56,884 nucleotides of DNA from an uncultured bacterium (GTDB lineage: Bacteria; Hinthialibacterota; Hinthialibacteria; Hinthialibacterales; Hinthialibacteraceae): the NCBI GenBank assembly GCA_964419335.1, contig CAYQOX010000007.1, forward strand, positions 65,189 through 122,072. The letters run 5' to 3'. The notes under the pieces are model-generated. The model had not been told where the DNA came from. It saw only the letters and a program-made list of their open reading frames with translations, and did no database searches. Position numbers and translations under genes: made by a program. The number at the start of each line of letters is the position of its first letter. The stretch's first letter is position 1. Below, piece after piece: positions 1 to 40,151 of the stretch.

Positions 1-274
1 CTACTCCCCAAAAGTTGGATAGTTGATTTAAGAAATTAATTGGCTCATGACTATGGTCATATCTTGGAGGGATTGTATCGGACGCTCGGAAAGTTGGAGC
101 GCGATAACTTTGACCTTGATTGAAATAAAATAAAGATTTTTCGAGCAAAGCCAATAAAGTTAAACACGCCACCCTTCCAATTAATTGTGTATTGACACTC
201 GTTCAAGAATCCAAAATCGTGTAAAATATTTCAGTCTATTTCTTCTCTTATTAAGTTTCATGAGGCTTATCAAT

Positions 275-928
275 ATGAAGTGTATTGCTGTGGGGAACCA
301 GAAGGGAGGAGTCGGAAAATCTACGATCGCAGTTAATCTCGCGTGTGAATTTGCATACCGAAAATATCGTGTAATACTGATCGATGCTGATGAACAAGGT
401 ACGGCCACGAATTGGTTGTCACGTGGGAACTTGCCCATTGATTTTCAATCGATGCCGGTTGAGAACGTATCCAATGCAGAGGATATGATTCGCGCAATCA
501 AAACCTTGGAGCAAGACCTTGTGGTGATTGATTTACCTCCCCACACACGAGAAGCGACAGAAGCGGCCTTGATGATCTGCGATCTTTTCGCAGTACCGAT
601 TACCCCTTCAGGAGCCGATTTTGTTTCGGCTAGGAATGTTCTTGAGTTATCGTACGAGGCTAGACGCATGCGGAATGGGAAACCGAAAAATGTGTTGATT
701 CCCTCGCGTGTGGATCGTCGGACATCGTTTGGGCGAGAGGTGGATCAAGCGCTTCAAGGCTTTAACGAAACGATTAGCCCGAGCATTGGACAGCGCAGCG
801 CATTTGTTGATTGTTTTGGTTTGGGAGATTGGATAGGGCATGCTTACCCACATTCCAAAGCATACATAGAAATACAGGAACTCGCTTCCATGGTGGAGGA
901 TTTATTAGAATGGCACGAAGCAATTTAA
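275..928 (+). CDS. ParA/MinD-family P-loop ATPase (partition-type)
   Basis: ORF 185..928 trimmed to the internal ATG at 275. MKCIAVGNQKGGVGKSTIAVNLA is a deviant Walker A (KGGxGKS) within the first 20 residues. About 217 aa, typical of ParA/Soj. Confidence 0.8.
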   Translation: MKCIAVGNQKGGVGKSTIAVNLACEFAYRKYRVILIDADEQGTATNWLSRGNLPIDFQSMPVENVSNAEDMIRAIKTLEQDLVVIDLPPHTREATEAALMICDLFAVPITPSGADFVSARNVLELSYEARRMRNGKPKNVLIPSRVDRRTSFGREVDQALQGFNETISPSIGQRSAFVDCFGLGDWIGHAYPHSKAYIEIQELASMVEDLLEWHEAI

Positions 929-1476
929 GTACTTTTAGTCGTGTTGCTGAAGAGGAATCACCAAAGATCCCATACCAGCCGAGAGAAGAAACGCAAAAGG
1001 ATGAAAACCGAGAAGAAGATGCAATACATATTGTTAAAAAGAATATGTATTGGTCAATGGGAATCGGGGTGATTCCTTTGCCCTGGCTCAGCATGTTGGG
1101 AACGGGAGGCATGCAGGCTAAAGCCTTGAAAGAATTATCTGATTTGTATGGAATTCCTTTTTCTAAACATAAAGCCAAAAATGTCATCGCTTCCCTGATT
1201 AGTGGATTAGGTACCCCTTTCATGGCCTCCCATTTTATACGTTCGACCTTCTTTCTATTTCCAGTGTTTGGACCGTTGATTTATATGACTGCGACCCCCT
1301 TATCGGCAGGTGCACTGACTTATGCTACAGGAAAGGTTTTTATTCAACATTTTGAGTCAGGCGGTACTTTTCTCGATTTTAATCCTCGCAAGGTACGAGA
1401 ATATTATCGAGAACAATTTGAAGAAGGTTTGTTGCTTTCTTCACAAATCAAGCAGGAGAGAAAAACCTCCTCGTAA
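910..1476 (+). CDS. DUF697 (YcjF-like) small membrane-associated protein, paralog 1
   Basis: ORF 811..1476; ATG at 910 chosen, overlapping the ParA stop by 19 nt. Conserved core (NMYWSMGIGVIPLPW, ELSDLYGIPFSKH, ALTYATGKVFIQHFESGGTF) is shared with the paralog at 43206..43766 and resembles the DUF697 LYG block. Start is uncertain. Confidence 0.55.
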   Translation: MARSNLSTFSRVAEEESPKIPYQPREETQKDENREEDAIHIVKKNMYWSMGIGVIPLPWLSMLGTGGMQAKALKELSDLYGIPFSKHKAKNVIASLISGLGTPFMASHFIRSTFFLFPVFGPLIYMTATPLSAGALTYATGKVFIQHFESGGTFLDFNPRKVREYYREQFEEGLLLSSQIKQERKTSS

Positions 1477-1479
1477 TCC

Positions 1480-2139
1480 ATGACTCTTGTTTTAACAGCA
1501 CGTTTTCATTCTTCCTTGTTGGAAGAACGATGGAATACGTATCTCAGAGATCTCCCCCATTTTCTGAAAGACGAAATTATGCGTTATCGCCGGTGGGAAG
1601 ATCGCCATTGTGTTCTATTTGGGAAACTTTTATTACGCGATGGTTTGAAGCGTTATCGTATTGATCCCAAGGTTATTTCACGTTTACAAAAGAATGCTTA
1701 CGGTAAGCCGTTTATTCCAGGTACTCCTCATTTTTCCATATCGCATTCCGCGCAACATATCATTTGTGCTTTTCATCCAAAGGCAGAAATTGGGGTAGAT
1801 ATAGAACCTATTCGCCCCATTGACTTGACACCTTTCCAATCGTACATGTCCGATCAGGAGTGGCGCGATATTTATCGATATTCACCGCCTGAAGTGGGAT
1901 TTTTCCGTTATTGGGCAATCAAAGAAAGTGTGATTAAGGCTGATGGACGTGGTTTATCCGCTCCGTTGGAGGCGATGGATATTCAGGAAAACGTCGCATT
2001 TTTGCAGGGGCGAAAATGGTTTATTAAAGAGTTGAAGTTATATCCTGGGATGGCTTCTTGGGTGGCAAGTGGGGAGGCTCTTCAAGATTTAGAAATATGT
2101 GAAATTCAGTATTGCGTTGAAAACAAAATTATTGATTGA
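1480..2139 (+). CDS. 4'-phosphopantetheinyl transferase, Sfp-type
   Basis: ATG at 1480 with an AGGAG-like site upstream. Motifs GKPF (P1), FSISHS, GVDIE (P2) and WAIKESVIKADGRGL (P3; W/KES/K). Length about 219 aa. Convergently overlaps the SPFH gene by 11 nt. Confidence 0.85.
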   Translation: MTLVLTARFHSSLLEERWNTYLRDLPHFLKDEIMRYRRWEDRHCVLFGKLLLRDGLKRYRIDPKVISRLQKNAYGKPFIPGTPHFSISHSAQHIICAFHPKAEIGVDIEPIRPIDLTPFQSYMSDQEWRDIYRYSPPEVGFFRYWAIKESVIKADGRGLSAPLEAMDIQENVAFLQGRKWFIKELKLYPGMASWVASGEALQDLEICEIQYCVENKIID

Positions 2140-3232
2140 GATTGTCCTCGAGCAGTTCTTCTTCTATTGGTTGGTTAAATTGATCAAAGGTATCGGTGGC
2201 AGAAGGGGTTGGAATGTTGAAATAATCGGTGGAGTCGAGAATTTCTTGAGCCATGGTGGAGGAATAGGGAATCCCAGAGGTTTGTAGTCCCAATTTGGTG
2301 CTATTCATGATAAGAGGCAGGCCGTCTTCGGGTCCGCCTACAACAATAACCCTGGCGTTGGGTGAAGTCGCCAGGTCGAGAGAAGCCTCGATCCCTTTCC
2401 ATTGTAAAAGTTGTTTGGAGATCCCTTCGGCGACAATGTCTTGAAAATCACGTATTCCCGAGGCCATGATCACTTTGCGTTTTGCTTCTTCTTCTGCTTG
2501 CATTAGGAGATATTGGTATTTTTCGGCGTTGTGCATCTCACGGAGTTTTTCCTCGATGGCTTGCTCAACCAAAGAAGGGAGGGTGATTTTGGTGATAAGA
2601 AGATCATCAAGTTCGATATATCTTTCGGTTAATTGCAATAAAGCCTCGCTCAGGGCGGCATCCAGCATGCCATATTCTGCTCGATAGAGTTCTTCAGGGT
2701 GGTATTTGCCCACGACGAAGCGCAAGGAGGCCTCGATTTCAGGAATGATGACAGTTTCGACATAATCTGGCCCAATATATTTATGTAAATAGTTTAAGTC
2801 GGTACTCTCTCGGCTGGGGTGAAAACGAATAGAAACAGTAAATTTAATATGTAAGCCGTCTTGGGCAAGGATGTTAAATTCTTCCTGCACTTGTTGTTGA
2901 CGGATATTGTAAATGTGGATTCGATCGAAGGGCCAAATGATGTACAGGCCTTCGCCGAGGGGAGGTTTGTCGACCACGGTCCCGCCAAAGCGCCGGTAAT
3001 AGACTCCCCGCTCTCCGGAATGGATGGTGATAACGATGTTATTCCAAAACAAGATGATGAGGAATACAAGGATAAGGCCGAGGATTTCAAACTTCAATCG
3101 GTGGCGTTTGAACCATTGTTTCAAGCGAGTAGAGCATTTGTGTTGAGACGGAGAGGCTTGATTCTCTGGCTGGGATTGTATATAAAAGAACGATTGATCA
3201 TTTGTTTTCATAATGGTTGTATTATATTTCAT
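2129..3232 (-). CDS. SPFH/band-7 (prohibitin/HflC-like) membrane protein, paralog 1
   Basis: ATG at 3230-3232 (cat on +). N-terminal TM helix, then a band-7 core (ITIHSGERGVYYRRFGG, EAEYGMLDAAL, AEKYQYLLMQAEEEAKRKVIMASGIRDFQDIV). Highly similar to 40195..41277. Immediately downstream of ABC exporter 1 on the same strand. Confidence 0.8.
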   Translation of the reverse strand: MKYNTTIMKTNDQSFFYIQSQPENQASPSQHKCSTRLKQWFKRHRLKFEILGLILVFLIILFWNNIVITIHSGERGVYYRRFGGTVVDKPPLGEGLYIIWPFDRIHIYNIRQQQVQEEFNILAQDGLHIKFTVSIRFHPSRESTDLNYLHKYIGPDYVETVIIPEIEASLRFVVGKYHPEELYRAEYGMLDAALSEALLQLTERYIELDDLLITKITLPSLVEQAIEEKLREMHNAEKYQYLLMQAEEEAKRKVIMASGIRDFQDIVAEGISKQLLQWKGIEASLDLATSPNARVIVVGGPEDGLPLIMNSTKLGLQTSGIPYSSTMAQEILDSTDYFNIPTPSATDTFDQFNQPIEEELLEDNLNQ

Positions 3233-3243
3233 TTCCAGGCTTG

Positions 3244-4890
3244 TTAAAAATTCTTATTGATTTCGTGATTCATTGGTTCCAAACGGCCATAATCCATCCG
3301 ATAAATACGATCAGCGAGGCCATAATATTTGTCATCATGGGTAATGGCAATAATCGTCTTGCCTTGTTTCACCAAATTTTGCAGATAGACCTCATAAAAG
3401 TATTTCCTAAAGACTGGGTCTTGGTCGGCCGCCCATTCATCATACACATGGATTTCACGATTTTCTAACTCGGCTAATGTCAGAGCAAGTCTTTTTTTCT
3501 GACCCATCGAAAGGTCTAGGCTGGTAATCGTGCCATCTTTTCGAATTGAGGTTTTATCGTGAATTTGCATTTCTCGCAATAATTGTTGAACCCGATCGGG
3601 ATCAATTTGGTCTATACCGTAAGCCCGATCAAAGAGATGGGGTGATTGAAAAACTGCGGCAAAGTTGGCTCGATAGTGGGCGGGGGGGTGTTCAGTTATG
3701 TCTTGCTGGTTATGGAGGATCGTCCCTTGTTGGAGGGGATAAAGGCCGGTTAACACTTTAATTAAGGTGGTTTTTCCGGCGCCATTACCTCCCATGAGAA
3801 AGATGATTTCCCCGCGATTTACTTCTAGACTAATGGGGCCGATCCCAAACGTTGTTTCGGACACGTGATGATCGTATTGGAAATATACGTTATTCAAGCG
3901 CAAGTTAGCAAACTTCGGGGTAGAAATACGGCTATCAGGAGGGATCAGAGGTTCCTCAGGTAATTGTTGTAAATGTTGGCATATTTGGTTTAAACTTTTG
4001 ACTGAGATATTAGCCCGTTCAATGTAAGGGAATGAGCCGACGATTTCTTGCAACGGTCCGGTCGTTACAAAAAGAAGGATGGTCACTACTTGAATAAGGT
4101 TGTTTTGGGAAATTTGGATGATTTGGGGGAATATAAAGATCATGAATGCGAGAAGCAAGTATGAGAAGATCTGAGCAAAGATAATCGAAAAATTGAGTTT
4201 GGTCGAAGCATGAATTTTTAAGTTCTCAGTTTCATTGGCGGTAGAGAGAATATGGTTTTGAAAGAGATCCTGGTTACGAGGTTCATGGATTTTAATTTCT
4301 TGAAAACCATCAATCATGTGATTGATGTAATCAAAAAACTGGTTTTCTTTTTCTCTTGCTTCGGTTAGGTATCTTTCATGCTCTGATCGTTTAATACGAT
4401 AAAGTTGGATCCCCCCAAGCAAAAGGATGAGAGTAATAAGCAGTGCGTGCAAGGAAACAAAACCAATATATACAAAGGCGATGAGCATCAGGGTTAAAGA
4501 AGAAAGCATATTGGAAATGGAATTGGCGGCTTGAGAAATGAGGAGCATCTCTTGGGTGAGGAGGGTATGAATAGGATGCTGCTCTATCCTTTCAAAGGGA
4601 AGCAGGGGGATGCGTCGAATGAGGTTGGAAAACTGGGTTCGTGTGGAAGCGATCAACGTTTCGATCATTTCACTGGAACGATCCATGGTGTACTTTTGTA
4701 ATCGAACATAGGCAAAGATTGCGACACAAAATAAAAAGAAATATCGGAGTTGGGTATCGATTGTGGCATTGATAGAAAGAATAATTAAAAGTATGATAAC
4801 GAAATTTAATAGTCCAGCGAAGGCGAAATAGGCGAGAAACCGGGGTTCAAAAATACCGGTTTTTTCTTTCAAAAATTGCAAAAATTCCAT
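3244..4890 (-). CDS. Cyclic-peptide ABC exporter, SyrD/YojI family (fused permease + ATPase), paralog 1
   Basis: ATG at 4888-4890. N-terminal six-helix permease. C-terminal NBD with Walker A GGNGAGKTT, atypical signature LSMGQKKRLA, Walker B HVYDEWAADQD and an H-loop AITHDD. This motif set is characteristic of the SyrD-type exporters found in NRPS clusters. Confidence 0.85.
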   Translation of the reverse strand: MEFLQFLKEKTGIFEPRFLAYFAFAGLLNFVIILLIILSINATIDTQLRYFFLFCVAIFAYVRLQKYTMDRSSEMIETLIASTRTQFSNLIRRIPLLPFERIEQHPIHTLLTQEMLLISQAANSISNMLSSLTLMLIAFVYIGFVSLHALLITLILLLGGIQLYRIKRSEHERYLTEAREKENQFFDYINHMIDGFQEIKIHEPRNQDLFQNHILSTANETENLKIHASTKLNFSIIFAQIFSYLLLAFMIFIFPQIIQISQNNLIQVVTILLFVTTGPLQEIVGSFPYIERANISVKSLNQICQHLQQLPEEPLIPPDSRISTPKFANLRLNNVYFQYDHHVSETTFGIGPISLEVNRGEIIFLMGGNGAGKTTLIKVLTGLYPLQQGTILHNQQDITEHPPAHYRANFAAVFQSPHLFDRAYGIDQIDPDRVQQLLREMQIHDKTSIRKDGTITSLDLSMGQKKRLALTLAELENREIHVYDEWAADQDPVFRKYFYEVYLQNLVKQGKTIIAITHDDKYYGLADRIYRMDYGRLEPMNHEINKNF

Positions 4891-5126
4891 CAGGGTTTTA
4901 TCTCACCTTGTCATTTTGAATGGTTTTGGGTCATCCGGATAGAATCGATTCAAAAAAGGTCGAGAAGGATTCACTTAAGGATTCGTGTAATCTCTAACCA
5001 CCTATTTCAAGTCTTTGGCTTTTCTAAAGTAGTTTGGACACATCATAATTACTTCCTTGATAAAAATCTATACTTCGTACAATGATTTCTGCGTAACCAA
5101 ATGAGTTTATGCGGGTATCAGTGTCC

Positions 5127-5148
5127 TTGAAATCTCTATGGATTTCAA
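5127..5148. promoter_or_regulatory. Perfect palindrome TTGAAATC-N6-GATTTCAA in the PKS leader region
   Basis: 5127..5134 and 5141..5148 are exact reverse complements. Lies about 230 nt upstream of the gene A start, within the 484-bp AT-rich divergent intergenic region. Confidence 0.4.
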
Positions 5149-5269
5149 GTGAAAATGAAATTTTTAAAATTTATAAAAAAAATGGCAAAATCTTTCTCTT
5201 TTGATTTTGTAAAAAAAGCGTTTAGTGATATGATAAGTGTGCTTTTCTTAAATTTAAGTCATAATTAAG

Positions 5270-5290
5270 TTTGTAAAATAATATTACAAA
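5270..5290. promoter_or_regulatory. Inverted repeat TTTGTAA-N7-TTACAAA about 90 nt upstream of PKS gene A
   Basis: 5270..5276 and 5284..5290 are exact reverse complements in a very AT-rich stretch. Confidence 0.3.
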
Positions 5291-5380
5291 TAGAGAGATG
5301 TACTATTGATTTGAACTATCTCATAACTACTGGTGCATCATCAATGATATTTTTTAAGCGAGTTACTACGTAAATTGGAT

Positions 5381-8188
5381 ATGATGAATTTATTTAATGA
5401 CCCCATAGCCATTGTTGGAATGGGATGTCGGTATCCAGATGGGGCAAATCTACCTCATTTATTGTGGACGATTCTCAAAGAAAAAAAAGACTGTATTACC
5501 GAGATACCAGAAGAGCGATGGGATTACAGAGATTATCATAATAGCGACAATTCTATTTCAAAATGGGGGGGATTTCTTCAAGGTATAAAACCGGATGAAT
5601 TCGATGCGGCGTTTTTTGGTATCGCCTCAGGTGAAGCCACCTCGCTTGATCCGCAACAGCGTTGGTTATTAGAAGTCTCGTGGGAAGCGTTGGAATATGG
5701 GGGGATCGATCCCCGTGAATTACGGGCTCGGAAGGTCGGCATTTATATCGGGATTAGTACGCATGACTACCTAAACGGGACGATCGCTTCTCAAGATCTC
5801 CAACGTATCTCCCATTATAGTGGAACAGGCTCTTCCTTTAGTACCGCTGCGGGAAGGCTGGCTTACTTTTATGGAACTTATGGGCCCGCACTGTCGCTTG
5901 ATACGGCTTGTTCTTCTTCTCTCGTGGCCTTTCATCAAGCCTGCCAATCATTGCGAATGGGGGAATGTGATATGGCTATCGTCGGGGGTGTTAATGCACT
6001 CTTGACGCCTCATTTGCATGTTTATCTGTCCAAATTAGGGGTGATGTCTCGAAAAGGACGATGCCAGTCTTTTGATCAGAGTGCTGATGGGTATGTGCGA
6101 TCAGAAGGATGCGGGGTGATGGTACTGCAACGATTGGCCGATGCGAGGCGTGAAGGTAGAACGATCTTGGCTCATTGCATTGGTTCTGCTGTGAATCAGG
6201 ATGGTCATGGTGCCAGTTTGACCGCTCCTAATGTATCGGCGCAGGAACAATGTATTCGTCAGGCTTTGCGACAAGCGAAGATTGATGCTCGCGAGGTTGG
6301 ATATATTGAAGCGCATGGTACTGGGAACCCTTTGGGGGATGCGACGGAATTACAAGCACTGGGAAGCGTTTTTGCTTCCGGGAGAGAGACGCCTTTATGG
6401 CTGGGGTCGGTCAAATCCAATATTGGACATCTAGAAGCAGGAGCAGGAGTCGCAGGATTAATCAAAACTGTGCTCATATTTCGTTACGGCATGATTCCCC
6501 CAAATCTTCATTTCAAGCAGCCGTGTGATGCATTTACTTCCTTGGATCAAGTATTTCGAATACCAAAAAACACTGTGGCTTGGGAGAGAAATAAGATTCC
6601 TAGGCGTGCGGGGATTAGTTCGTTTGGGTTTAGCGGAACGAATGCGCATGTCATCTTAGAAGAGCCGCATGATGAGGTTGAGAATAGAAAGCCATCGAAA
6701 AATTTCGAGGATCGACCGGTACATATCCTTACTTTCTCGGGAAAAAGTAAAAATGCTTTACACGAATCTGTATCTCAGGGACTGACATTTCTTGAAAAAC
6801 ACAATTGTTCACTCGCGGATGTGGGTTACACATTGAATGCCGGGCGGGCTCATTTTGCCCACCGGTTTGCAGTATGGGGGAATAGTGTAAATGATGTTAT
6901 TTCACAACTGAAAAATCGGTTATGGGAACAAACAGAGGTGGATCTTGCCAAAGAACTGGTTTTTACTTTCACTCCTTTAACCAAGCGCGATAAAGAAGGC
7001 GTGAAAGAATTCCTTCGTACGAGTCCTGTTTTCTATACAGAGTTCAAAAAATGGGATGATGTTACGCAATCAAAGGGGTTGAAATCTCTGTTCTTATATA
7101 TACAAAACGACGGAGATGCAGGCGGTTTGGAAGAAGAGTTCGTTCTTCAAACTTCACTGTTGTGTATATTGTTTTTACTGTGGAATTCGTGGGGGGTTGT
7201 ATCCAAAAAATTGATTGCTCAGCCCTCAACCTTACTTGCAGCACTGTACTGCAGTGAAATTATTACCATGGAAGAAACGGTGGAACTTTCTTGTTTTCTT
7301 TCTCAAGAAAACAAGCCCTTGTCAGATGAAAAACTCGCTTCAATTGGGCAAAGAAGTTCGCAGTTGACATTATTTTTTGATACACAGAAGGAATGTAATT
7401 TTAATCGGGCATGGTTAACAACACTGAAAGATCGTTTTACTCTTGATTTACAGCATTCACCTCATTTTCATAAAGAAGTTCATTTTGATTTACGCCTTGG
7501 CATGTGGAGTAAAGATGAAGTTTTGAGTTGGAATCTGATATCTAAAACGTTATGTGCGTTGTCAATGCAAGGTTGGGATATTAACTGGAAGGCTTTTGAT
7601 TCGCCTTATGAGCGCAACGTACTATGTGAAATGCCTACCTACCCATTTCAACGAAAAAAATATTACATCAATCCTATGGAGCCTTTATTGCAAAAGATTG
7701 TTAAACCGGTCAATCCAAAAAGAAACCTTGAAACGCAGGATATTCAAGAAAGGTTGTGTTCATGCATTAAAGGGAAGCGAGGTGAATATTTGAAAACTTG
7801 TATTCATGATACGGCCCTACATATTTTGGGGGATGTCACCTCGTTGGAATATGAACGTCCATTGGTCGAACAGGGATTTGATTCACTCACGGCGGTAGAA
7901 TTACGCAACCGCTTAGCGAAAGACTTGGAATTATCCTTACCGGTGACCCTGCTGTTTAATTATCCTACCATACAGGCCTTAGCGGATTATTTAATGGAAA
8001 TCATTCCATGGGACGATTGGACAAATGAAGGAAAGACAAAGCCGTCTGAGGAACAAGAGGAGTCGAATATGGAATCGATCCCGGATGAGCTTCATAAGAC
8101 TTTAACCGATGAAGAAATGAAACATCTTGATGGGTTGGATGATGAAGAATTAGAACAATGGATCAAAGACGATCTAGAATCAATTTGA
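5381..8188 (+). CDS. Type I PKS module: KS - degenerate AT (AT0) - ACP
   Basis: The ORF track start at 5375 is TTG; the first ATG is 5381. KS motifs: DTACSSS (Cys about 5909), EAHGTGN, NIGHLE. The post-KS region is homologous to a KS-AT linker plus AT, but GQGSQ is replaced by PLTKR and GHSIG by AQPST, and HAFH is absent. This indicates an inactive AT. ACP has GFDSL (Ser about 7883). Acidic C-terminal tail (DEEMKHLDGLDDEELEQWIKDDLESI) resembles a docking element. Confidence 0.9.
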   Translation: MMNLFNDPIAIVGMGCRYPDGANLPHLLWTILKEKKDCITEIPEERWDYRDYHNSDNSISKWGGFLQGIKPDEFDAAFFGIASGEATSLDPQQRWLLEVSWEALEYGGIDPRELRARKVGIYIGISTHDYLNGTIASQDLQRISHYSGTGSSFSTAAGRLAYFYGTYGPALSLDTACSSSLVAFHQACQSLRMGECDMAIVGGVNALLTPHLHVYLSKLGVMSRKGRCQSFDQSADGYVRSEGCGVMVLQRLADARREGRTILAHCIGSAVNQDGHGASLTAPNVSAQEQCIRQALRQAKIDAREVGYIEAHGTGNPLGDATELQALGSVFASGRETPLWLGSVKSNIGHLEAGAGVAGLIKTVLIFRYGMIPPNLHFKQPCDAFTSLDQVFRIPKNTVAWERNKIPRRAGISSFGFSGTNAHVILEEPHDEVENRKPSKNFEDRPVHILTFSGKSKNALHESVSQGLTFLEKHNCSLADVGYTLNAGRAHFAHRFAVWGNSVNDVISQLKNRLWEQTEVDLAKELVFTFTPLTKRDKEGVKEFLRTSPVFYTEFKKWDDVTQSKGLKSLFLYIQNDGDAGGLEEEFVLQTSLLCILFLLWNSWGVVSKKLIAQPSTLLAALYCSEIITMEETVELSCFLSQENKPLSDEKLASIGQRSSQLTLFFDTQKECNFNRAWLTTLKDRFTLDLQHSPHFHKEVHFDLRLGMWSKDEVLSWNLISKTLCALSMQGWDINWKAFDSPYERNVLCEMPTYPFQRKKYYINPMEPLLQKIVKPVNPKRNLETQDIQERLCSCIKGKRGEYLKTCIHDTALHILGDVTSLEYERPLVEQGFDSLTAVELRNRLAKDLELSLPVTLLFNYPTIQALADYLMEIIPWDDWTNEGKTKPSEEQEESNMESIPDELHKTLTDEEMKHLDGLDDEELEQWIKDDLESI
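6700..7640 (+). other. Degenerate acyltransferase (AT0) region inside PKS gene A
   Basis: Aligns block-by-block with the active AT of gene B (linker ILTFSGKSKNAL vs LLPLSARSENAL; VFTFTPLTKR vs VFLFTGQGSQ; IAQPSTLLAA vs VAGHSIGEYAA). The oxyanion-hole and GHSxG motifs are lost. The post-AT linker PTYPFQRKKYY is retained. Confidence 0.7.
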
Positions 8189-8197
8189 GGTGGTTTA

Positions 8198-11100
8198 ATG
8201 AATCAATCCAATGAAAGCCAAGTGCTAAAAAAAACCTATATTGCTTTAAAGAAAACCCAAAAGCGGGTGGAAGAATTAGAAAACGCCCAGCGTGAACCTT
8301 TAGCGATTATTGGCATGGCTTGCCGATTTCCCGGGGGAGGAAATACACCTGAAGCGTTTTGGGATTTGCTGAAGAATGGTGTCGATGCGAGTAGTGAGAT
8401 TCCTGAAGAACGGTGGAAATCACAAACTTTTTATCATCCTGAACCCGATACTCCTGGAACCACCCATGCTCATCGTGCGAACTTTCTAACATTACCAATC
8501 GATGAATTCGACGCTCCTTTTTTCAATATATCCGCCAAAGAAGCCCGGGCCATGGATCCCCAGCAGCGTTTGCTCATGGAAGTCTCTTGGGAAGCCATGG
8601 AAGATGCAGGATTAAATGTAAGTCGCTTAAATGGTAGTCGGACAGGGGTGTATGTGGGGATTTCCAGCGATGATTATTCGCTAGCGCATCGACATTCGGG
8701 AGATTATGGGCAAGTAGATGCCTATTCATTGACAGGAACGTGTTTTGCGCCCGCGGCGGGACGGCTTTCGTATTCCTTTGGTTTTGAGGGACCGTCTATG
8801 GCGGTGGATACAGCTTGTTCTTCCTCGCTGGTGGCATTGCATTTGGCTTGTCGGGGATTGAGAAATCATGAGATGGATATGGCTTTGGTCGGGGGAGTGA
8901 ATTTAATCTTAACTCCATCTTTCCATATTTGTTCAACCAAGTTAGGCACGATTTCACCTGATGGACGGTGTAAAACTTTTGATGCTTCGGCCGATGGCTA
9001 TGGACGCGGTGAAGGCTGCGGAATGGTCGTGATTAAGCGGTTATCAGATGCGGTTCGCGATGAGGATCCTATCCATGCGGTGATTCGTGGTACGGAGGTC
9101 AATCAGGATGGGAAGAGCAATGGCTTAACTGCCCCTAATGGACGTTCCCAAGAAAAAGTGATTCGTAGTGCGTTGGCGAATGCGGGATTATCTCCAGCGG
9201 ATATTAATTATGTTGAAGCCCATGGTACTGGAACCTCGCTGGGGGATCCTATTGAGGTGGAAGCGATTGCTCGCGTGATGGAAGAATCGCACACCCGAGA
9301 GAATCCCGTGTGGATCAGCTCCGTAAAAATCAACATTGGCCATTTGGAGGCCGCAGCGGGGATTTCTGGCTTATTTAAAGTTATTTTATCTATGCGGCAT
9401 GATACCTTGCCTCCACATTTTCACTTCAAAAATCCCAATCCTTATGTTGACTGGGAGCAATTGCCCGTAGAAGTCCCGACACAGCTAACTTCATGGCAAA
9501 GGAATGACAAACCTCGACGTGCTGGGATCAGCTCTTTTGGTTTTAGCGGGACCAATGCCCATGTCGTTGTGGAAGAGCCCCCATCGGTGAAAGAGGAGCA
9601 GGAAGGTCAGCAGCCGATAGAAATTCAAAGCAGGAAAGATCGGTCGTCTTGTCTCTTGCCTTTGTCGGCTCGTAGTGAAAATGCATTAAAAGCATTAGCA
9701 AAGAACTATGTCCGTTTTATAGAGCACAGTGATGTTTCGATTGCCGATATATGTCATACCGCAGGTGTGGGTCGTACCCATTTCAATTACCGTATTTCCG
9801 TAATTGGTAAAGATGCGGATGAAATCAAAACGAACTTGGAGGCGTATACCCAGGGGAAAAAGGCGGCAGGACTCAAGCAAAATGATGGGGTTTTATCTAA
9901 ACCCAAGGTGGTTTTTCTGTTCACTGGTCAGGGCTCACAATATGTAGGGATGGGTAAGGAACTTTATGATACATCGCCGGTCTTTCGAGATGCTATGGAT
10001 GCCTGCGATGCAGGTTTACGTCCCTATCTAAATGAGTCGCTTCTAGAGTTACTCTATAGCGAAGGCGCAGATGATACGCGGTTGACCCAAACTCAGTTTA
10101 CCCAGCCAGCGATCTTTGCCATAGAATATGCGTTAGCACAGCTTTGGATGTCGTGGGGGGTGATACCCGATAAGGTTGCGGGACATAGCATTGGAGAATA
10201 TGCAGCGGCGTGTATCGCGGGAGTTATGAGCTTAGAGGATACACTTCGCCTTGTTGCCGCAAGGGGAAGATTGATGCAATCACTTCCGGGTAATGGAACC
10301 ATGGCGGCAGTGTTTGCCCGGGAAGAAGACTTGCTCGCTCAGTTGGATTTCGAGGGGAAAGAAGTTTCCATCGCTGCTGTGAATGCGCCGGGTTCGGTTG
10401 TCCTTTCAGGAGAACGTGGACAAGTCCAGGAGATGATTGAGGAGTTAAAGAAGCGAGGAATCTCTGCGAAGCAACTTAATGTTTCCCATGCGTTTCATTC
10501 TCCATTAATGGACCCTATTTTGGATGAATTTAGACAGATTGCCAATGAGATCACTTATCATGATCCTGAAATTTCCATCATTTCGACCGTAAGGGGTGGA
10601 GAGATTCAGGATGGGGATTTCACCAGCGCCGAATATTGGACAGAACAAATTCGGAAGCCGGTACGTTTTTGTGAAGCGGGTGAGAGGTTAAGTTTGGATA
10701 GTTCTTCTCTCCTGCTTGAGATCGGGGCAATGCCGATTTTGGCAGGACTCATGAAGCGGATTGTGACAGAGGACACTTGTACCATTTTATATTCAATGAA
10801 AAAAGGCGAAGAGGAATGGAAAAGTTTGCTTCACGCGTTGGGTGAAGTTTATATTCATGGAATTGAAGTTGGTTGGCGGGCCTATGATCAAGCTTATAAA
10901 CGCAAGCGCGTATCCTTACCTTTTTATGCTTTTCAACGCAAAAACTTCTATATGAATCCGGTTCGAGAACAAGGCCCCGCCGGTGGCGGACACGCTTTCA
11001 CAGAGGATAGCCATCCCTATTTAGGTGAACGTATTGATAGTCCCATTATGGGAGAAGATTCTACCTTATTTCAGGCTTTGTTTAGCGAGCCGTGGCCTGA

Positions 11101-14100
11101 CTTTTTACGTCAGCACAAGATTTTTGGGAAGATTATTTCTCCCGGGGCGGCGCATTTGTGTATGGCTTTATCGGCTTGGCGTAATGAAAAGGGGAACGAG
11201 CCTTGTGTTTTAGAAAATGTTGATTTGACGGCTCCTTTGGTGGTCGATGAGGAAGAAAAGCGTAAGGTTCAATTAATTTTGGAAAATAAGCTGGATTCAA
11301 AAGCGGAGTTTCGTCTGTTGAGTAAAGAGGCGGGACAACGAAAAGGAACGTGGATCCTACATTGTAATGGAAATGTTCACAATCTTTTGGAAGACGAAAC
11401 AAACTCTGAGCCGCTGCCGCTGGAAGAAATCCGAACCCGTTGTGATGAGGATATGACGGCGGAAGAATTGTATCAATATATTGAAAATGTGGGGTATAGC
11501 GTCGGCCCGTTATTCCAGTGCGTGCGCGAGATTCATAAGGGAGATAACGAGGCTTTGTGTATTGTGAGGAACGTGCATGAGGTAGATGAAATGGCGGTAT
11601 ATCCCGGATTGGTCGACTCGTTTTTGCAGACAGTTCTGCCTGCGTTGATGAAAAATGATCGCGGTATGCTGGATGGCGAGCATGTCCTGATTCCCCTGCA
11701 TTTTAAAAAGATCCAATTTCAAAAAAGTTTAGATGGAGATTTATATTGTCATACCCAGGTTGCATTGATGGAGGATGCTATCAAAGCCCAAATTCGGATT
11801 GCAGATCCGAGTGGAAACGTGGTTTTGGAAATTGAAGATTTCCTTCTTAAATATACTGATCGCAATACCCTCTACCGCGATTTGCGGGAAGACTTTCATA
11901 AACTCATTTATCTTACCCAGTGGGACGAGATACGCCCTCGAGAGAAAGAACATGTTTCCAGTACGGGACTCTCTTACTCTCTCGTTTTGGATGACGGTCA
12001 TGGTTTTGGACAGACTCTTGTGAATACGATTCGAACCCAAGGTGGGAATTGTATTCATGTTCTTCTTGGGGAGACTTTTGAGCAGAAAGCCAAGGATACT
12101 TATGTAGTCAATGCGAACCAGGAAGATGATCTTTCACAAATTTTCCATGAAGCCATTAAACATAAAGGGGATACACCCATTCACCTTTTGTGTTGCCTGG
12201 GTATCAAAGATGGTCATATTCATGAAATCGATGCCAATGGACTAGAATTCGCAGAGCAAATAATTATTCAGCCTTTGCTATCGGTTTTCCATCAATTGCA
12301 TTCTCAAAATGTAACTGATCATTTTAAACTTTGGTGTTTCACCGAAAAAAGTCAGCGCACTCATCTGGAGGATGGTACGATTCAACTCGCAACTTCTCCC
12401 CTATGGGGATTAGGGCGAACCATGGAAATGGAATTCCCTGAAATGTGGGGGGGGATGATCGATGTCGATGCCAACCTACCGGCAACAGCGTTTGCAACAG
12501 TGCTGGCTCATATCGAAGAACCAAATCACGAAAATCAGATTGCCGTGCGCCAGAATGGGCGGATATATGGTGCGCGCTTAATCCCGATGAAAAAGAGACG
12601 CGAGGAGTCTTCTCGGGAAGAATTGCCGCTGCCCTCCTGTTCGAAAGATGAAGGTATTTATTTGGATACAGGAAATAAAGGGACGCTCGATGAATTGAAC
12701 TTCAAAAAACGCTCACGACGCGAACCGCAAGCGAATGAAGTCGAAGTACACATTTATGCCTCAGGTCTGAATTTTCGTGATGTGCTTAATGTCTTGGGGC
12801 AGTACCCCGGTGACGCGGGATTTATGGGCTATGAGGCGGCAGGAATTGTGACCCGTACCGGATCTCTCGTGAGTGAATTTCGAGAGGGAGACGGGGTGAT
12901 TGTCATGGATGCACCGGGATGCATTTGTGATTACATGACCTGCGATTTGAATTGCGTGATGAAGATCCCCGCGGGGATGAATTTCTATGAAGCCGTTACA
13001 TTACCCGCTACCTTTTTGACGGCTTATTATGCCTTAGAAAAATTGGGACATGTGCGAGAAGGCGATAAAGTGTTGATCCATGCCGGAGCCGGCGGAGTGG
13101 GGATGGCCGCGGTCCAATTATGCCTGGATGCAGGGGCTGAAGTCTTTGCTACGGCAGGTTCGGATAAAAAACGCGCCTTATTGAAAGATATGGGAGTACA
13201 TCATGTGATGAATTCCCGCACACTTGAATTCGCGGATGAGATCCACACGATTACTCAAGGCCAGGGTGTCGATGTGGTGTTGAATTCCTTATCGGGCGAT
13301 TTTATTGAAAAGAGTTTTGAAGTCTTGGCCAAGCATGGACGCTTTTTAGAGATGGGAAAGATCGAGATTTGGAACGAGTCTCAGGTTCGTGCGAAAGATC
13401 CGAGTTATTCGTATTATCCCTTCGATCTCTCTACGGTCTCGCGTGAGAATCCCGGCTATGTCAAAGAATTGTTCCACGAGCTCTTGCCAAGATTTGAAAG
13501 CCAGTCTTTGACTGCCTTGCCCTATACTGTTTTTCCTATGCGACGTGCGAAAGAGGCGTTTCGTTACATGGCTCAAGCCAAGCATATAGGGAAAATTGTG
13601 CTTTCACGTTTGGAGGATATTCGTCGGGATGAAAGAGAAACCTTGGGAGTTGTTCGTTCGGATGCCACTTATTTAATTACCGGTGGTTTGGGGGCGTTAG
13701 GTTTGCAAGCAGCCCGGTGGTTGGCTGAAGAAGGAGCTCAACATATCGTGTTGACTAGTCGCAGTGATCCTAAGCCAGAGGTGGAAGCAATATTGCAATC
13801 GTTGCAGCAACAAGGCATTGAGATTGAGGTTATGCGGGGGGATGTGGCACACGAAGAGGATGTGCAACGTATAATCCAACGCATTCGGACTGAGATGCCC
13901 CCGCTGAAAGGAATTCTTCATGCCGCGGGAGTCTTAGATGATGGGATGTTAGGAGAACAAACTTGGGAACGTTTTAAAAAAGTAATGGCACCGAAGGTAC
14001 GTGGCGCTTGGAATCTGCATCGGGCTACCCGTAATGTGTTGTTGGACTTTTTCGTGATGTATTCTTCGGTGGCCTCGTTGTTAGGGAACTTAGGACAAAG

Positions 14101-14830
14101 TAACTATGCGGCTGCTAATGCCTTTATGGATTCATTAGCACACTATCGTCGTCAGCAAGGTTTACCTGCATTGAGCGTTAATTGGGGGCCCTGGGCTGAA
14201 GCCGGAATGGCAGCGGGTGTATCGAAAGAACGTTTCTCCAGCCAAGGCATACAAAGTCTTAATCCTGAACGCGGAATGCATATTTTGAATACTTTGCTTA
14301 CTGAAGAGATTACCCAACCGTGCGTGATTGATGTGGATTGGGCAAAGTATGCCGAGAGCCGGGCTCTGGATGGGCGGCACGGATTTTTCTCAATGTTATT
14401 AGGAGAATCCAAAGTCAAGAAAAAGACAGATAAATTCGAATCAAAAGAACAGAATCTAATTCTTGATGAGCTCAAGCAATGTTCCGATGGACAGCGGAAG
14501 AATACACTTGTTGCTTTTCTTAAGCAAACGGCGCTGGACGTGCTTGGTTATAGTGAGACGGAGCAAATATCAACCGATCAACCGTTGGTTGATCAAGGCT
14601 TTGATTCCCTTATGAGCGTGGAAATGCGCAATCGTTTAGGTAAAAGTTTGAATCAATCACTACCGGCCTCACTTTTGTTTGACTATCCCACTTTGGAAAA
14701 GATCGCCGAATATTTGCTGGAAGAAGTATTAAAAGTAGAGGAAGAAACCGGTACGAGTGAGGTACAAACGAAAGCAGGTCGCGCTTCCGATGATTTGCTG
14801 AGCGAGATCGATGAATTGGTAAAATCCTAA
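8198..14830 (+). CDS. Type I PKS module: KS-AT(malonyl)-DH-ER-KR-ACP (fully reducing)
   Basis: ATG at 8198 preceded by GAGGTGG. N-terminal coiled-coil docking. KS: DTACSSS, EAHGTGT, NIGHLE. AT: GQGSQ, GHSIGE (about 10181), HAFH (malonyl-type). DH: HPYLGERIDSP (HxxxGxxxxP) and DSFLQ. ER: LIHAGAGGVGMAAVQ (about 13072..13110). KR: TGGLGALG, LDD motif, S..Y..N triad (SNYAAANA about 14101). ACP: GFDSL (14597..14611). Confidence 0.9.
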   Translation: MNQSNESQVLKKTYIALKKTQKRVEELENAQREPLAIIGMACRFPGGGNTPEAFWDLLKNGVDASSEIPEERWKSQTFYHPEPDTPGTTHAHRANFLTLPIDEFDAPFFNISAKEARAMDPQQRLLMEVSWEAMEDAGLNVSRLNGSRTGVYVGISSDDYSLAHRHSGDYGQVDAYSLTGTCFAPAAGRLSYSFGFEGPSMAVDTACSSSLVALHLACRGLRNHEMDMALVGGVNLILTPSFHICSTKLGTISPDGRCKTFDASADGYGRGEGCGMVVIKRLSDAVRDEDPIHAVIRGTEVNQDGKSNGLTAPNGRSQEKVIRSALANAGLSPADINYVEAHGTGTSLGDPIEVEAIARVMEESHTRENPVWISSVKINIGHLEAAAGISGLFKVILSMRHDTLPPHFHFKNPNPYVDWEQLPVEVPTQLTSWQRNDKPRRAGISSFGFSGTNAHVVVEEPPSVKEEQEGQQPIEIQSRKDRSSCLLPLSARSENALKALAKNYVRFIEHSDVSIADICHTAGVGRTHFNYRISVIGKDADEIKTNLEAYTQGKKAAGLKQNDGVLSKPKVVFLFTGQGSQYVGMGKELYDTSPVFRDAMDACDAGLRPYLNESLLELLYSEGADDTRLTQTQFTQPAIFAIEYALAQLWMSWGVIPDKVAGHSIGEYAAACIAGVMSLEDTLRLVAARGRLMQSLPGNGTMAAVFAREEDLLAQLDFEGKEVSIAAVNAPGSVVLSGERGQVQEMIEELKKRGISAKQLNVSHAFHSPLMDPILDEFRQIANEITYHDPEISIISTVRGGEIQDGDFTSAEYWTEQIRKPVRFCEAGERLSLDSSSLLLEIGAMPILAGLMKRIVTEDTCTILYSMKKGEEEWKSLLHALGEVYIHGIEVGWRAYDQAYKRKRVSLPFYAFQRKNFYMNPVREQGPAGGGHAFTEDSHPYLGERIDSPIMGEDSTLFQALFSEPWPDFLRQHKIFGKIISPGAAHLCMALSAWRNEKGNEPCVLENVDLTAPLVVDEEEKRKVQLILENKLDSKAEFRLLSKEAGQRKGTWILHCNGNVHNLLEDETNSEPLPLEEIRTRCDEDMTAEELYQYIENVGYSVGPLFQCVREIHKGDNEALCIVRNVHEVDEMAVYPGLVDSFLQTVLPALMKNDRGMLDGEHVLIPLHFKKIQFQKSLDGDLYCHTQVALMEDAIKAQIRIADPSGNVVLEIEDFLLKYTDRNTLYRDLREDFHKLIYLTQWDEIRPREKEHVSSTGLSYSLVLDDGHGFGQTLVNTIRTQGGNCIHVLLGETFEQKAKDTYVVNANQEDDLSQIFHEAIKHKGDTPIHLLCCLGIKDGHIHEIDANGLEFAEQIIIQPLLSVFHQLHSQNVTDHFKLWCFTEKSQRTHLEDGTIQLATSPLWGLGRTMEMEFPEMWGGMIDVDANLPATAFATVLAHIEEPNHENQIAVRQNGRIYGARLIPMKKRREESSREELPLPSCSKDEGIYLDTGNKGTLDELNFKKRSRREPQANEVEVHIYASGLNFRDVLNVLGQYPGDAGFMGYEAAGIVTRTGSLVSEFREGDGVIVMDAPGCICDYMTCDLNCVMKIPAGMNFYEAVTLPATFLTAYYALEKLGHVREGDKVLIHAGAGGVGMAAVQLCLDAGAEVFATAGSDKKRALLKDMGVHHVMNSRTLEFADEIHTITQGQGVDVVLNSLSGDFIEKSFEVLAKHGRFLEMGKIEIWNESQVRAKDPSYSYYPFDLSTVSRENPGYVKELFHELLPRFESQSLTALPYTVFPMRRAKEAFRYMAQAKHIGKIVLSRLEDIRRDERETLGVVRSDATYLITGGLGALGLQAARWLAEEGAQHIVLTSRSDPKPEVEAILQSLQQQGIEIEVMRGDVAHEEDVQRIIQRIRTEMPPLKGILHAAGVLDDGMLGEQTWERFKKVMAPKVRGAWNLHRATRNVLLDFFVMYSSVASLLGNLGQSNYAAANAFMDSLAHYRRQQGLPALSVNWGPWAEAGMAAGVSKERFSSQGIQSLNPERGMHILNTLLTEEITQPCVIDVDWAKYAESRALDGRHGFFSMLLGESKVKKKTDKFESKEQNLILDELKQCSDGQRKNTLVAFLKQTALDVLGYSETEQISTDQPLVDQGFDSLMSVEMRNRLGKSLNQSLPASLLFDYPTLEKIAEYLLEEVLKVEEETGTSEVQTKAGRASDDLLSEIDELVKS

Positions 14831-14881
14831 TATCGGTTAAAACTGGAATATTTATTATTGGATTGATGGCAGAAGGACATA

Positions 14882-38654: not shown

Positions 38655-38699
38655 AGGTGTGAATCCTTGTGTTTTTTTCTTGGTGATAGAATCCAATAA

Positions 38700-40151
38700 T
38701 TATTGGTTGGCTTCTTCTTGTGATTCGAGATAAAGTTTCAGGACCTCGACCATAATTTGATTTTTGGTGAGTCCTGAATCAATCGATTCGAGCGTTAGTT
38801 GATAATTAAGAGCCTTGGGTAAATACACAGTGACTGGAATGAGATCATTAAGCGATGGGGTAGATCTTCTTTCTTGAGCTAATCTTTTTCCCCGCAGGTA
38901 GCGTTGTTGAACGACATCTTCTTTTTGCGATTGAATTCCATTTCTTTCGAAATCTATACGATCCATCCTTGGAGCATCCGTGGCGATATCGGCTCGTTTT
39001 TTTTGGCTTATGGCAAAGGACCATAATGCCCGGTAATTTCGCATGGTTTGAGGGGTAACAATACCCCAGAAGGAAACTTCTTCCCAATATTCTTGGTCAC
39101 CAATGTTGTAATTATCGATATCTTTTTGATCGAATAAATTGCTATCTGTTTTTAATATGGGAGTTACTCCCCATAATTCAACGGCCGTCTTTTGTACGTC
39201 GGGAGAAATGCAATAATCTATCCAGTCCATACAAATTTTATATTTTAGAGATTCCTTAGGAACGTTTGAGCAGATTGACCAATGATCAAGCCACGCGGTC
39301 GTCCCTTCTACGGGATCGGAAAATTTCCAATTCATTCCTCTCGCATTGGCGACCTGAACCGCATATCCCCAGGTCGTCGTAAAGGCTAAATCATCCATTT
39401 CATTAATATTTGGAACACTTTGCCAGAATGAATAAGCATTTTTGGCAAGATCATTGAGTTTTGTACGTACTTGATTAATTGACACTTGCTTGAAAAGCTC
39501 ATTCGTCTTGTAAAGCACATCATAATCTGCGCCTAAAGCCAGGGCGGTGATATAAATATTACATTCAGCATAATCAGAACAAATAGAATACATATTCTGA
39601 TATTTCTCTTCCCAAAGCACCTTCCAGGTTTTTGGGTCTTCTTCAACAATGTCCGCGTTATAGGCGAGAGCGTAATTCCCTGTTGCGACGGGGATTCCAT
39701 AAACAAGTTTTTCCTTTTCATTGTTTTTACCTTGTTCGATCTCTTGGACAACAAAATGAGTTTCCTTAAAAGCGGGGAGGATTTGATCATAATTAGATAA
39801 TTGGTGAACTTCCAAGGGGTGGAGATACTGTTCCTCGATTAAAGGCCATAAACCGCTTTTGTACATGTCATGAGAAGGAGTGACAAGATCCGCTTCTTTT
39901 CTTGTGACCTTATCAAAAAGTTCATCCGGGTTGGCGACGATTTCAATTTTGAACGATAGATTCACATTCTCATATTTGTTTTCAATGAGAGTTTTGAAAT
40001 CTTCCATCAAGGGTTCTGCATATCCTTCGTAACATGAAATCCGTAAGGTGATTTGTTGAGGTTCCTGGGCAAAAGAGATAGAGGTTAGTAAAAAAAATAA
40101 GAACCCGAAAAGAAGCCCAGTGAAAGATTGATTTTTATTTTGAAAACTCAT
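38700..40151 (-). CDS. Secreted periplasmic-binding-protein-like protein with C-terminal ribbon-helix-helix-like tail
   Basis: ORF 38700..40331 trimmed to the ATG at 40149-40151, preceded by AGGAG at 8 nt. N-terminal signal peptide MSFQNKNQSFTGLLFGFLFFLLTSISFAQEP. The body is weakly PotD/extracellular solute-binding-like. The last about 50 aa (IPVTVYLPKALNYQLTLESIDSGLTKNQIMVEVLKLYLE) follow a beta-strand then two-helix RHH pattern. Last gene of the ABC2-SPFH2 operon. Confidence 0.5.
   Translation of the reverse strand: MSFQNKNQSFTGLLFGFLFFLLTSISFAQEPQQITLRISCYEGYAEPLMEDFKTLIENKYENVNLSFKIEIVANPDELFDKVTRKEADLVTPSHDMYKSGLWPLIEEQYLHPLEVHQLSNYDQILPAFKETHFVVQEIEQGKNNEKEKLVYGIPVATGNYALAYNADIVEEDPKTWKVLWEEKYQNMYSICSDYAECNIYITALALGADYDVLYKTNELFKQVSINQVRTKLNDLAKNAYSFWQSVPNINEMDDLAFTTTWGYAVQVANARGMNWKFSDPVEGTTAWLDHWSICSNVPKESLKYKICMDWIDYCISPDVQKTAVELWGVTPILKTDSNLFDQKDIDNYNIGDQEYWEEVSFWGIVTPQTMRNYRALWSFAISQKKRADIATDAPRMDRIDFERNGIQSQKEDVVQQRYLRGKRLAQERRSTPSLNDLIPVTVYLPKALNYQLTLESIDSGLTKNQIMVEVLKLYLESQEEANQ

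Follow-up and report, generated by a model that had tools for sequence, protein, structure and literature searches.

Introduction

ATP-binding cassette (ABC) exporters of the SyrD/PvdE/YojI family and membrane cages built from SPFH proteins are each well known. SPFH cages enclose specific membrane clients, few of which have been defined in bacteria, and the handover of large polyketide synthase (PKS) and nonribosomal peptide synthetase (NRPS) products to exporters is poorly understood. To our knowledge, none of the characterised exporters SyrD, PvdE and YojI has an SPFH or DUF697 partner encoded with it. Here, we analyse a 56,884-nucleotide stretch of DNA from an uncultured bacterium of the Hinthialibacterota (assembly GCA_964419335.1, contig CAYQOX010000007.1, positions 65,189 to 122,072; the whole stretch is called the window), in which PKS/NRPS genes are flanked on each side by genes for a DUF697 protein, a prohibitin-type SPFH protein and a SyrD-type ABC exporter. 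The ABC-linked module of prohibitin, DUF697 protein and small open reading frame (ORF) seen here is an uncharacterised variant of the SPFH scaffold-client theme.

The window exporters resemble SyrD, PvdE and YojI in their TIGR01194 score, their layout of transmembrane domain followed by nucleotide-binding domain (TMD-NBD), their ATPase motifs and their location in an NRPS cluster; they differ in being translationally coupled to a prohibitin and in being present twice. The window SPFH proteins share a transmembrane (TM) helix, an SPFH domain and a long wall helix with HflK/C-FtsH, PHB1/PHB2, QmcA-YbbJ (an SPFH-NfeD system) and stomatin. As in SPFH-NfeD systems, the SPFH protein has a partner in the same operon, but that partner is an ABC exporter and not a protease, as for HflK/C-FtsH, or an NfeD protein.

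A 2009 survey of SPFH proteins in 497 genomes, which defined 12 subfamilies, makes no mention of ABC or transporter partners (PMC2636767). In Amycolatopsis, the SPFH protein paraslipin was proximity-labelled by Tba, the ABC exporter of the balhimycin glycopeptide biosynthetic gene cluster (BGC), and a membrane microdomain for biosynthesis and export was proposed (PMC11960670). There, as in the window, an SPFH protein is found near the ABC exporter of an NRPS cluster, seen experimentally in that case and known from the genes in ours. The Tba case differs in that the SPFH gene was not reported in the cluster, belongs to the paraslipin subfamily and comes from a Gram-positive host, whereas the link in the window is genetic and conserved. 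Finally, an ABC exporter gene followed by a prohibitin gene beside an NRPS/PKS island was mentioned in passing for Thalassobaculum sp. OXR-137, which is the same pairing as in the window; that paper mentions no DUF697 gene, small ORF or solute-binding protein (SBP) gene, gives no comparative analysis and reports no duplication (PMC12016528).

Our preferred explanation, to which as a whole we assign a probability of roughly 0.6, is that positions 910..4890 of the window and their surroundings hold two things: a ParA-DUF697-phosphopantetheinyl transferase trio, which is a standard accessory part of such clusters, and an additional copy of an ABC-SPFH gene pair, whose products would carry out prohibitin-scaffolded, SyrD-type export.

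Paralogous genes on both flanks of the PKS/NRPS genes

The genes that make up the three paralog pairs and their immediate partners are as follows, with L and R marking the left and right flanks.

275..928, + strand: ParA/MinD-like P-loop ATPase (matches to Pfam AAA_31, CbiA and ParA)
910..1476, + strand: DUF697_L, DUF697 paralog linked to ParA, N-terminal motif MARSNLSTFSRVA (PF05128, 38.0 bits)
1480..2139, + strand: Sfp-type 4'-phosphopantetheinyl transferase (PPTase), third gene of the ParA-DUF697-PPTase trio (Pfam ACPS, AASDHPPT_N)
2129..3232, - strand: SPFH_L, prohibitin-family protein, extra copy (Band_7 PF01145, 93.1 bits)
3244..4890, - strand: ABC_L, SyrD/PvdE/YojI-type half-transporter (TMD-NBD), extra copy (TIGR01194, 311.9 bits)
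40195..41277, - strand: SPFH_R, prohibitin-family protein of the export operon (Band_7, 91.0 bits)
41274..42902, - strand: ABC_R, SyrD-type half-transporter of the export operon (TIGR01194, 314.0 bits)
42998..43168, - strand: small two-TM membrane protein, 56 aa (ORF list, two hydrophobic segments)
43206..43766, - strand: DUF697_R, head of the export operon (PF05128, 37.0 bits)

All six paralogous ORFs were present where an earlier note on this DNA had placed them, and the family assignments agree with its account of a DUF697, an SPFH and a SyrD-like ABC gene on both sides of the PKS/NRPS genes. Both DUF697 proteins and both SPFH proteins score above the Pfam gathering cut-offs (27.7 bits for PF05128 and 23.6 bits for PF01145), and both ABC proteins, which also match Pfam ABC_tran, exceed the curated cut-off of 286.2 bits for TIGR01194, 'cyclic peptide export ABC transporter'. 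Formal alignment with BLASTP gave 46% identity between ABC_L and ABC_R (539 aa, E 6e-179), 54% between SPFH_L and SPFH_R (365 aa, E 3e-129) and 52% between DUF697_L and DUF697_R (144 aa, E 5e-49). No pair proved unrelated, the description of the paralogs as related yet diverged, with moderate ABC identity, is borne out, and paralogy in all three pairs is, judged from these alignments, far beyond chance.

At the DNA level, the two flanks are 67% identical over 761 nt in the SPFH genes and 71% identical over 224 nt in the NBD-encoding part of the ABC genes. Because identity is just 67-71% and confined to short stretches, the ABC and SPFH copies are old and free of recent gene conversion; a recent duplication or conversion event was rejected on these values.

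In both copies, the ABC gene lies directly upstream of the SPFH gene and translationally close to it, again as the earlier note had described: on the left, the TAA stop codon of ABC_L is followed after 11 nt by the ATG start of SPFH_L, and on the right the two genes share a 4-nt ATGA overlap. The left flank reads DUF697(+), PPTase(+), SPFH(-), ABC(-), such that DUF697_L is opposite in strand to the ABC_L-SPFH_L pair with the PPTase gene in between, and the right flank reads DUF697, small ORF, ABC, SPFH, all on the minus strand. Only the right side has the 56-aa two-TM ORF, unannotated and not mentioned in the earlier note, between DUF697_R and ABC_R, and an SBP gene directly after SPFH_R; no copy of the 56-aa ORF was found near the left module. 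Compared by gene order and orientation, the two flanks are not collinear in the manner of a three-gene segmental duplication.

Linkage of SyrD-type exporters to one prohibitin clade

SPFH profile scans of species-representative genomes and metagenomes yielded 160 loci with SPFH relatives. The scans were dominated by Bacteroidota-type prohibitins, with few close relatives, and the Bacteroidota-type loci served as a negative control. By tblastn, a SyrD-type ABC gene lies next to the SPFH gene, usually together with a DUF697 gene, in 22 of 167 loci. In a neighbour-joining (NJ) tree of 170 SPFH proteins, the ABC-linked members all fall in one clade (bootstrap 93) in which 25 of 29 tips are linked, compared with 0/141 among the other prohibitins, which are mostly from Bacteroidota. 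PKS/NRPS domains are encoded in 10/22 linked loci versus 0/145 others.

Besides the window's own group, linked loci are found in Verrucomicrobiae, Geobacteraceae, Cystobacter and Azonexus, and the gene orders of these loci vary, including DUF-ABC-SPFH, DUF-SPFH with a convergent ABC gene, and a divergent DUF gene with SPFH-ABC-ABC; three of them have two tandem ABC genes. In 12 further loci where the ABC gene precedes the SPFH gene, the two overlap or are separated by no more than 43 nt.

A tblastn search of plasmids, with gene identities taken from RefSeq annotation, placed the same gene set beside NRPS genes on plasmids of the cultured Alphaproteobacteria Skermanella, Azospirillum and Tistrella. 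Azospirillum argentinense p2 carries genes for an NRPS, TauD, two ABC proteins, a hydrolase, DUF697, a 65-aa ORF and a prohibitin, with the small ORF preceding the prohibitin gene and resembling the 56-aa ORF of the window. On the Tistrella mobilis megaplasmid pTM3 (L176, NC_017958.1, ~663.7-667.4 kb), an NRPS gene is followed by DUF697-ABC-SPFH. T. mobilis KA081020-065 is a didemnin producer; no searchable paper ties these pTM3 coordinates to the didemnin cluster, and we make no claim that the trio belongs there.

Searched for by synteny, the ABC-SPFH pairing recurs in at least 25 independent loci of several phyla, mostly beside PKS/NRPS genes, and is not absent from relatives of the window. 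Since the neighbourhood has been kept through rearrangement, is restricted to one SPFH clade and is linked to BGCs, a functional partnership is likely, and the prohibitin-type SPFH protein probably functions as one unit with the ABC exporter. The proposal of the earlier note that a peptide exporter and an SPFH scaffold work together as an export unit is upheld to this extent, with the recurrent, clade-confined adjacency as its support.

An SPFH protein encoded in such a cluster might also act independently of the exporter, protecting or repairing the producer's membrane against a membrane-active product and thereby conferring self-resistance. The cluster probably makes a lipopeptide, given its PKS, large NRPS and terminal condensation (C) domain, and the SPFH protein YqfA (SPFH5) of B. 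subtilis has been cited as conferring resistance to toxic peptides (PMC2636767). Set against this are the stop/start overlap specifically with the ABC gene, which recurs in about 14 loci, and the persistence of the ABC-prohibitin linkage across BGCs of differing architecture, and we regard protection without the exporter as quite unlikely, with scaffolded export remaining our preferred reading.

Tandem, overlapping SyrD-type ABC genes were observed beside a single prohibitin gene at four distant loci (L066, 4722..8002; L117, 3404..6654; L122, 7081..10331; L175, 6651..9949). This arrangement suggests heterodimeric exporters and bears on the question of whether ABC_L and ABC_R could pair.

A conserved accessory gene set

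Contigs with the closest SPFH homologs were compared with the window by classifying their ORFs against the window proteins. These were L084 (GCA_964612675.1), L086 and L087 (on contigs of 1.8 and 2.6 Mb), L088 (a metagenome-assembled genome of Candidatus Hinthialibacter antarcticus), L089, L090 and L091, all of which adjoin PKS/NRPS genes. The comparison involves the following further genes of the window.

5375..35069, + strand: PKS/NRPS genes, mid-window
35145..36728, + strand: secreted S12 (beta-lactamase-fold) D-peptidase-like enzyme (Pfam Beta-lactamase)
36786..38696, - strand: AsnB-type glutamine-dependent amidotransferase (TIGR01536, 477.6 bits)
38700..40148 (longest ORF to 40331), - strand: secreted SBP-like protein of the PotD/SBP_bac_8 type, last gene of the export operon (Pfam SBP_bac_8, SBP_bac_6)
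44008..45195, + strand: predicted lipoprotein, 395 aa, with a coiled-coil C-terminal half (lipobox-like N-terminus)

The recurring set consists of the lipoprotein gene; an export operon of DUF697, small two-TM ORF, ABC, prohibitin and SBP; the ParA-like, DUF697 and PPTase genes; AsnB; and the S12 peptidase gene, which lies next to the last NRPS gene. The order of the window's right flank matches that of L090 exactly, and the gene order around SPFH_R is the same as in L086-L091. SBP orthologs directly follow the SPFH gene in L002, L086 and L088-L091. Orthologs of the 56-aa ORF, about 60 aa long and 52-71% identical, occupy the same position in L084, L086-L091 and a further locus, L172 (GCA_014728855.1). 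Lipoprotein orthologs, 35-45% identical, are found in the same position, divergent from the export-operon DUF697 gene, in L084, L086, L087, L090 and L091; none was seen in L088 or L089 among the ORFs classified against the window proteins, and the homolog in L002 (36%) lies elsewhere, downstream of the SBP gene. AsnB orthologs are 61-63% identical in L084, L086, L090 and L091, and S12 peptidase orthologs occur in L084, L086 and L090.

The ParA-like protein has orthologs of 58-64% identity in L084, L086, L088, L089 and L091. A DUF697 gene with the N-terminal motif always comes after it and a PPTase gene is close to the ParA-DUF697 pair, its relative strand differing in L084. The same five loci have two DUF697 genes each, and each of L084 and L086-L091 has one ABC gene, with the SPFH gene adjacent to it except in L084. 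The left flank of the window is thus the ParA-DUF697-PPTase trio with an additional ABC-SPFH pair.

The two DUF697 types are distinct in tree, motif and position. Those at the head of the export operon, including DUF697_R, form one clade in an NJ tree (94% bootstrap), and DUF697_R shares 59-60% identity with its positional orthologs and just 52% with DUF697_L. The ParA-linked proteins, including DUF697_L, carry the N-terminal motif M[AST][RK]SxLxxF..[IV]A, which is absent from the others and occurs in 5/120 DUF697 homologs of this group. Upstream of DUF697_L, GGAGG is found about 10 nt before its ATG at 910, and the ParA-like gene overlaps it by 19 nt. By these comparisons, the DUF697 paralogs are older and differ in their partners, the ParA-like gene in one case and the export operon in the other.

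Because relatives with a single ABC gene already hold both DUF697 types, the DUF697 pair is older than the copying of the ABC-SPFH pair and independent of it. The three pairs do not trace to the same event: the depths of the ABC and SPFH pairs match, and both DUF697 types are found in single-pair relatives. Of the old duplication put forward in the earlier note, the paralogy and the old divergence stand, but a three-gene segmental event does not, given the older DUF697 pair and the lack of collinearity between the flanks.

A single ancient event that duplicated a DUF697-SPFH-ABC block, with the copies now bracketing the megasynthase as a frame by design, would account for all three families being present on both flanks at a similar identity of 46-54%. 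It fits poorly with DUF697_L lying on the other strand, behind the PPTase gene and coupled to ParA, in flanks that are not collinear, with the presence of both DUF697 types in relatives that have a single ABC-SPFH pair, and with the absence of bracketing in L084, L086, L088, L089, L091 and L172, and we consider it very improbable. Framing of the megasynthase as a conserved design is contradicted by the related loci. In L172, an ABC_L ortholog (67%) stands back to back with orthologs of DUF697_R (86%), the small ORF (71%) and ABC_R (70%), and in L084, L086, L088, L089 and L091 the accessory genes seen sit in one stretch beside the megasynthase genes. The placement on opposite flanks in the window is a local rearrangement, and the duplication itself is ordinary paralogy. 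The accessory gene set serves as a genome-mining marker of cluster borders.

The window ATPase resembles ParA/MinD-type positioning ATPases that work with adaptors (ParA-ParB, McdA-McdB, BcsQ) in its deviant Walker A motif KGGVGKS. It is also like them in that its gene overlaps that of its partner, which bears a short, conserved, basic N-terminal peptide; the partner differs from ParB in being a DUF697 membrane protein and not a DNA-binding or cargo-binding protein. N-terminal peptides of ParA partner proteins stimulate the ATPase, and the start of DUF697_L, M[AST][RK]SxLxxF, is reminiscent of them. The ParA-like protein and the motif-bearing DUF697 might be a separate nucleoside triphosphatase (NTPase) and membrane-adaptor pair that conceivably positions the export machinery.

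Plasmid partitioning was rejected as a role for the ParA-like gene. Its product scores 155.3 bits against the ParA_partition equivalog NF041546, for which the cut-off is 180, its neighbour encodes a DUF697 membrane protein, and its orthologs lie inside BGC accessory sets on Mb-scale contigs. The gene is here no evidence of a plasmid.

In L084 (10001..14179) we also observed a pair of prohibitin genes, sister paralogs with 100% bootstrap, that flank two SBP genes of the Phosphonate-bd type. The SPFH duplication there is independent and accompanied by another SBP family.

Protein features and a proposed export mechanism

ABC_L and ABC_R, both of about 545 aa, have N-terminal hydrophobic segments and a fused TMD-NBD layout, and their motifs are intact (Walker A GGNG[AS]GKT, LSMGQ, Walker B VYDE and H-loop ITHD). 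The best solved relatives of SPFH_L by sequence (phmmer against the PDB) are PHB2 (3e-15) and PHB1 (5e-12). An AlphaFold2 (AF2) model of SPFH_L as a monomer, with a predicted local distance difference test (pLDDT) score of 72.7 overall and high values over residues 30-270, comprises a TM helix (45-66), an SPFH domain (67-217), a 49-residue helix (220-268) and a disordered tail. Foldseek matched it to the human prohibitin complex 8rrh (E 1.7e-17), followed by HflK/C, stomatin, erlin and QmcA cages. Counts of lysine plus arginine before versus after the TM helix are 6 versus 3 in SPFH_L and 5 versus 1 in SPFH_R; the family means are 3.9 and 1.6, with the bias seen in 13/15 members. This suggests an N-in topology that would leave most of the protein on the periplasmic side, and the single SPFH gene in most loci implies, as far as gene counts can tell, a homo-oligomer. 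The AF2 model of DUF697_R has six helices (pLDDT 79.5). A fold search with it against the PDB gave no significant match, DUF697 was likewise without a sequence relative among solved structures, and our literature search found no functional paper on the family.

With PHB1/PHB2 and HflK/C cages as the closest solved relatives, the prohibitin could instead gate an AAA protease such as FtsH, as proposed for HflK/C and mitochondrial prohibitins, and thereby control the turnover of the exporter or of envelope enzymes. No gene for an AAA+ membrane protease partner was found in the window modules or the conserved neighbourhoods, where the sole conserved hydrolase is the secreted S12 peptidase; a partner may be encoded elsewhere. 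We judge protease gating to be highly improbable.

In the export mechanism that we favour, a dimer of SyrD/PvdE-type half-transporters would pump a lipopeptide-like product or precursor across the inner membrane. The prohibitin, anchored by one N-in TM helix, would expose its SPFH and coiled-coil parts to the periplasm and, made in stoichiometric coupling with the exporter, could assemble into an SPFH ring or cage that organises or confines it. DUF697_R and the small membrane protein, together with two secreted proteins, the SBP and the S12 peptidase, would probably act at the same envelope site, and the ParA-like ATPase with its DUF697 partner would form the separate pair described above. The second ABC-SPFH pair may provide export co-regulated with synthesis, serve a second substrate or allow hetero-oligomers.

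A more elaborate version, which we think improbable, would have a periplasm-facing prohibitin cage surrounding the SyrD-type exporter, DUF697, the two-TM protein, the SBP and the S12 peptidase enclose a confined chamber in which the PKS/NRPS product is exported and matured, with the ParA-like ATPase and the motif-bearing DUF697 positioning the platform and perhaps the megasynthase within the membrane. Such a hard-wired 'biosynthesis-export organelle' would use its two pairs as two chambers or as one hetero-oligomeric cage.

A prohibitin subfamily encoded almost always beside a SyrD-type exporter, and usually with DUF697, would offer a clear and testable client-scaffold pair, one that occurs across phyla and includes cultivable Azospirillum, Skermanella and Tistrella. 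The export gene set also gives DUF697 and the small orphan membrane protein a first functional context.

History of the ABC-SPFH pair

In the SPFH tree, SPFH_L (with its 76% ortholog P0002) and SPFH_R (with P0018) belong to one subclade together with L086, L090 and L091 (81%). In the ABC tree, ABC_R groups with the L086, L090 and L091 orthologs (58-71% bootstrap) and ABC_L lies nearby with its 67% ortholog P0087, with weak deep nodes (33-50%). Separate orthologs thus exist elsewhere for each copy: P0087 and P0002 in the case of the left pair, L172 and P0018 in that of the right. Over a common taxon set, the L-R distance is 0.94 for ABC, compared with 0.88-0.94 between R and its orthologs, and 0.62 for SPFH, compared with 0.52-0.65. 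Because L-R distances equal R-ortholog distances for both genes, the data fit, without proving, a two-gene duplication near the lineage split. We infer that ABC and SPFH were copied together, as one two-gene unit, roughly when the window's lineage separated from those of L086, L090 and L091, and the copies would later have been moved to opposite flanks by rearrangement.

Several points weigh against the explanation as a whole. The NJ trees do not settle in which order L, R and the single-copy orthologs branched, with support of 16-71%. A wider ABC tree joins ABC_L to P0095 and P0101 at 88%; P0101 (L173) is encoded at the head of a similar PKS and is not followed by an SPFH gene. In L084 the ABC gene stands five genes from the SPFH genes, and in L002 the distance is 9 kb. 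The case for partnership is one of gene adjacency and not of interaction prediction or experiment, the orientation of the prohibitin is read from the positive-inside rule only, and the role given to the ParA-like and DUF697 pair is conjecture.

Because ABC_L groups with P0095 and P0101, the latter lacking an SPFH gene, ABC_L and SPFH_L could differ in origin. Instead of being duplicated in situ, the left pair may then have been acquired laterally or when two related clusters fused or recombined, with ABC_L possibly drawn from a 'head-of-PKS' exporter lineage and SPFH_L added separately; P0101, like ABC_L, is divergent from a 2205-aa PKS. The third-codon-position G+C content (GC3) of the left pair, 0.43-0.49, is somewhat above the 0.37-0.42 of the right pair, but these values are inside the window's gene-to-gene range and composition gives no clear signal of a lateral origin. 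SPFH_L and SPFH_R share a subclade (81%), the ABC and SPFH paralog pairs agree in relative depth, and the deep ABC nodes lack support (33-50%). We therefore hold a separate origin of the left pair to be unlikely and keep to the copying of a two-gene unit.

Other genes and minor observations

Signal peptides were predicted on the SBP and the S12 peptidase. The likely start of the SBP is M62 of the longest ORF. Its C-terminal ~75 aa (38700..39100) contain a conserved basic Y.RGK+LA.ERR stretch followed by a ribbon-helix-helix-like segment, and this tail gave sub-threshold Pfam matches to RHH_1, Antitox_RHH and VapB in 3/5 orthologs. The segment would be a DNA-binding-type fold on a predicted periplasmic SBP.

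The S12 peptidase gene comes after an NRPS that ends in a C domain, and its product has an extra C-terminal domain and is without C-terminal TM helices. Its best PDB match is the alkaline D-peptidase 4y7p (E 3e-35), and the enzyme may act on the product in the periplasm, by processing or releasing it. A ClbP-type prodrug peptidase was considered and is not supported, given this best match, a weak match to ClbP and the missing C-terminal TM helices. The 395-aa lipoprotein matched no Pfam family; from its predicted features, it could serve as a periplasmic adaptor.

ABC_L and the first PKS gene are divergent and share one intergenic region. A promoter scan of 1..5500 gave counts no higher than the shuffled expectation. 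Terminator-like sites in the same region numbered 11 against a shuffled expectation of 5.4 (sd 2.6), about 2 sd above, and the scan was not used.

Further along the window, a 1086-aa protein (49543..52803, - strand), unrelated to the paralog pairs, combines a major facilitator superfamily (MFS) transporter region with HEAT repeats and a C-terminal cyclic-nucleotide-binding domain.

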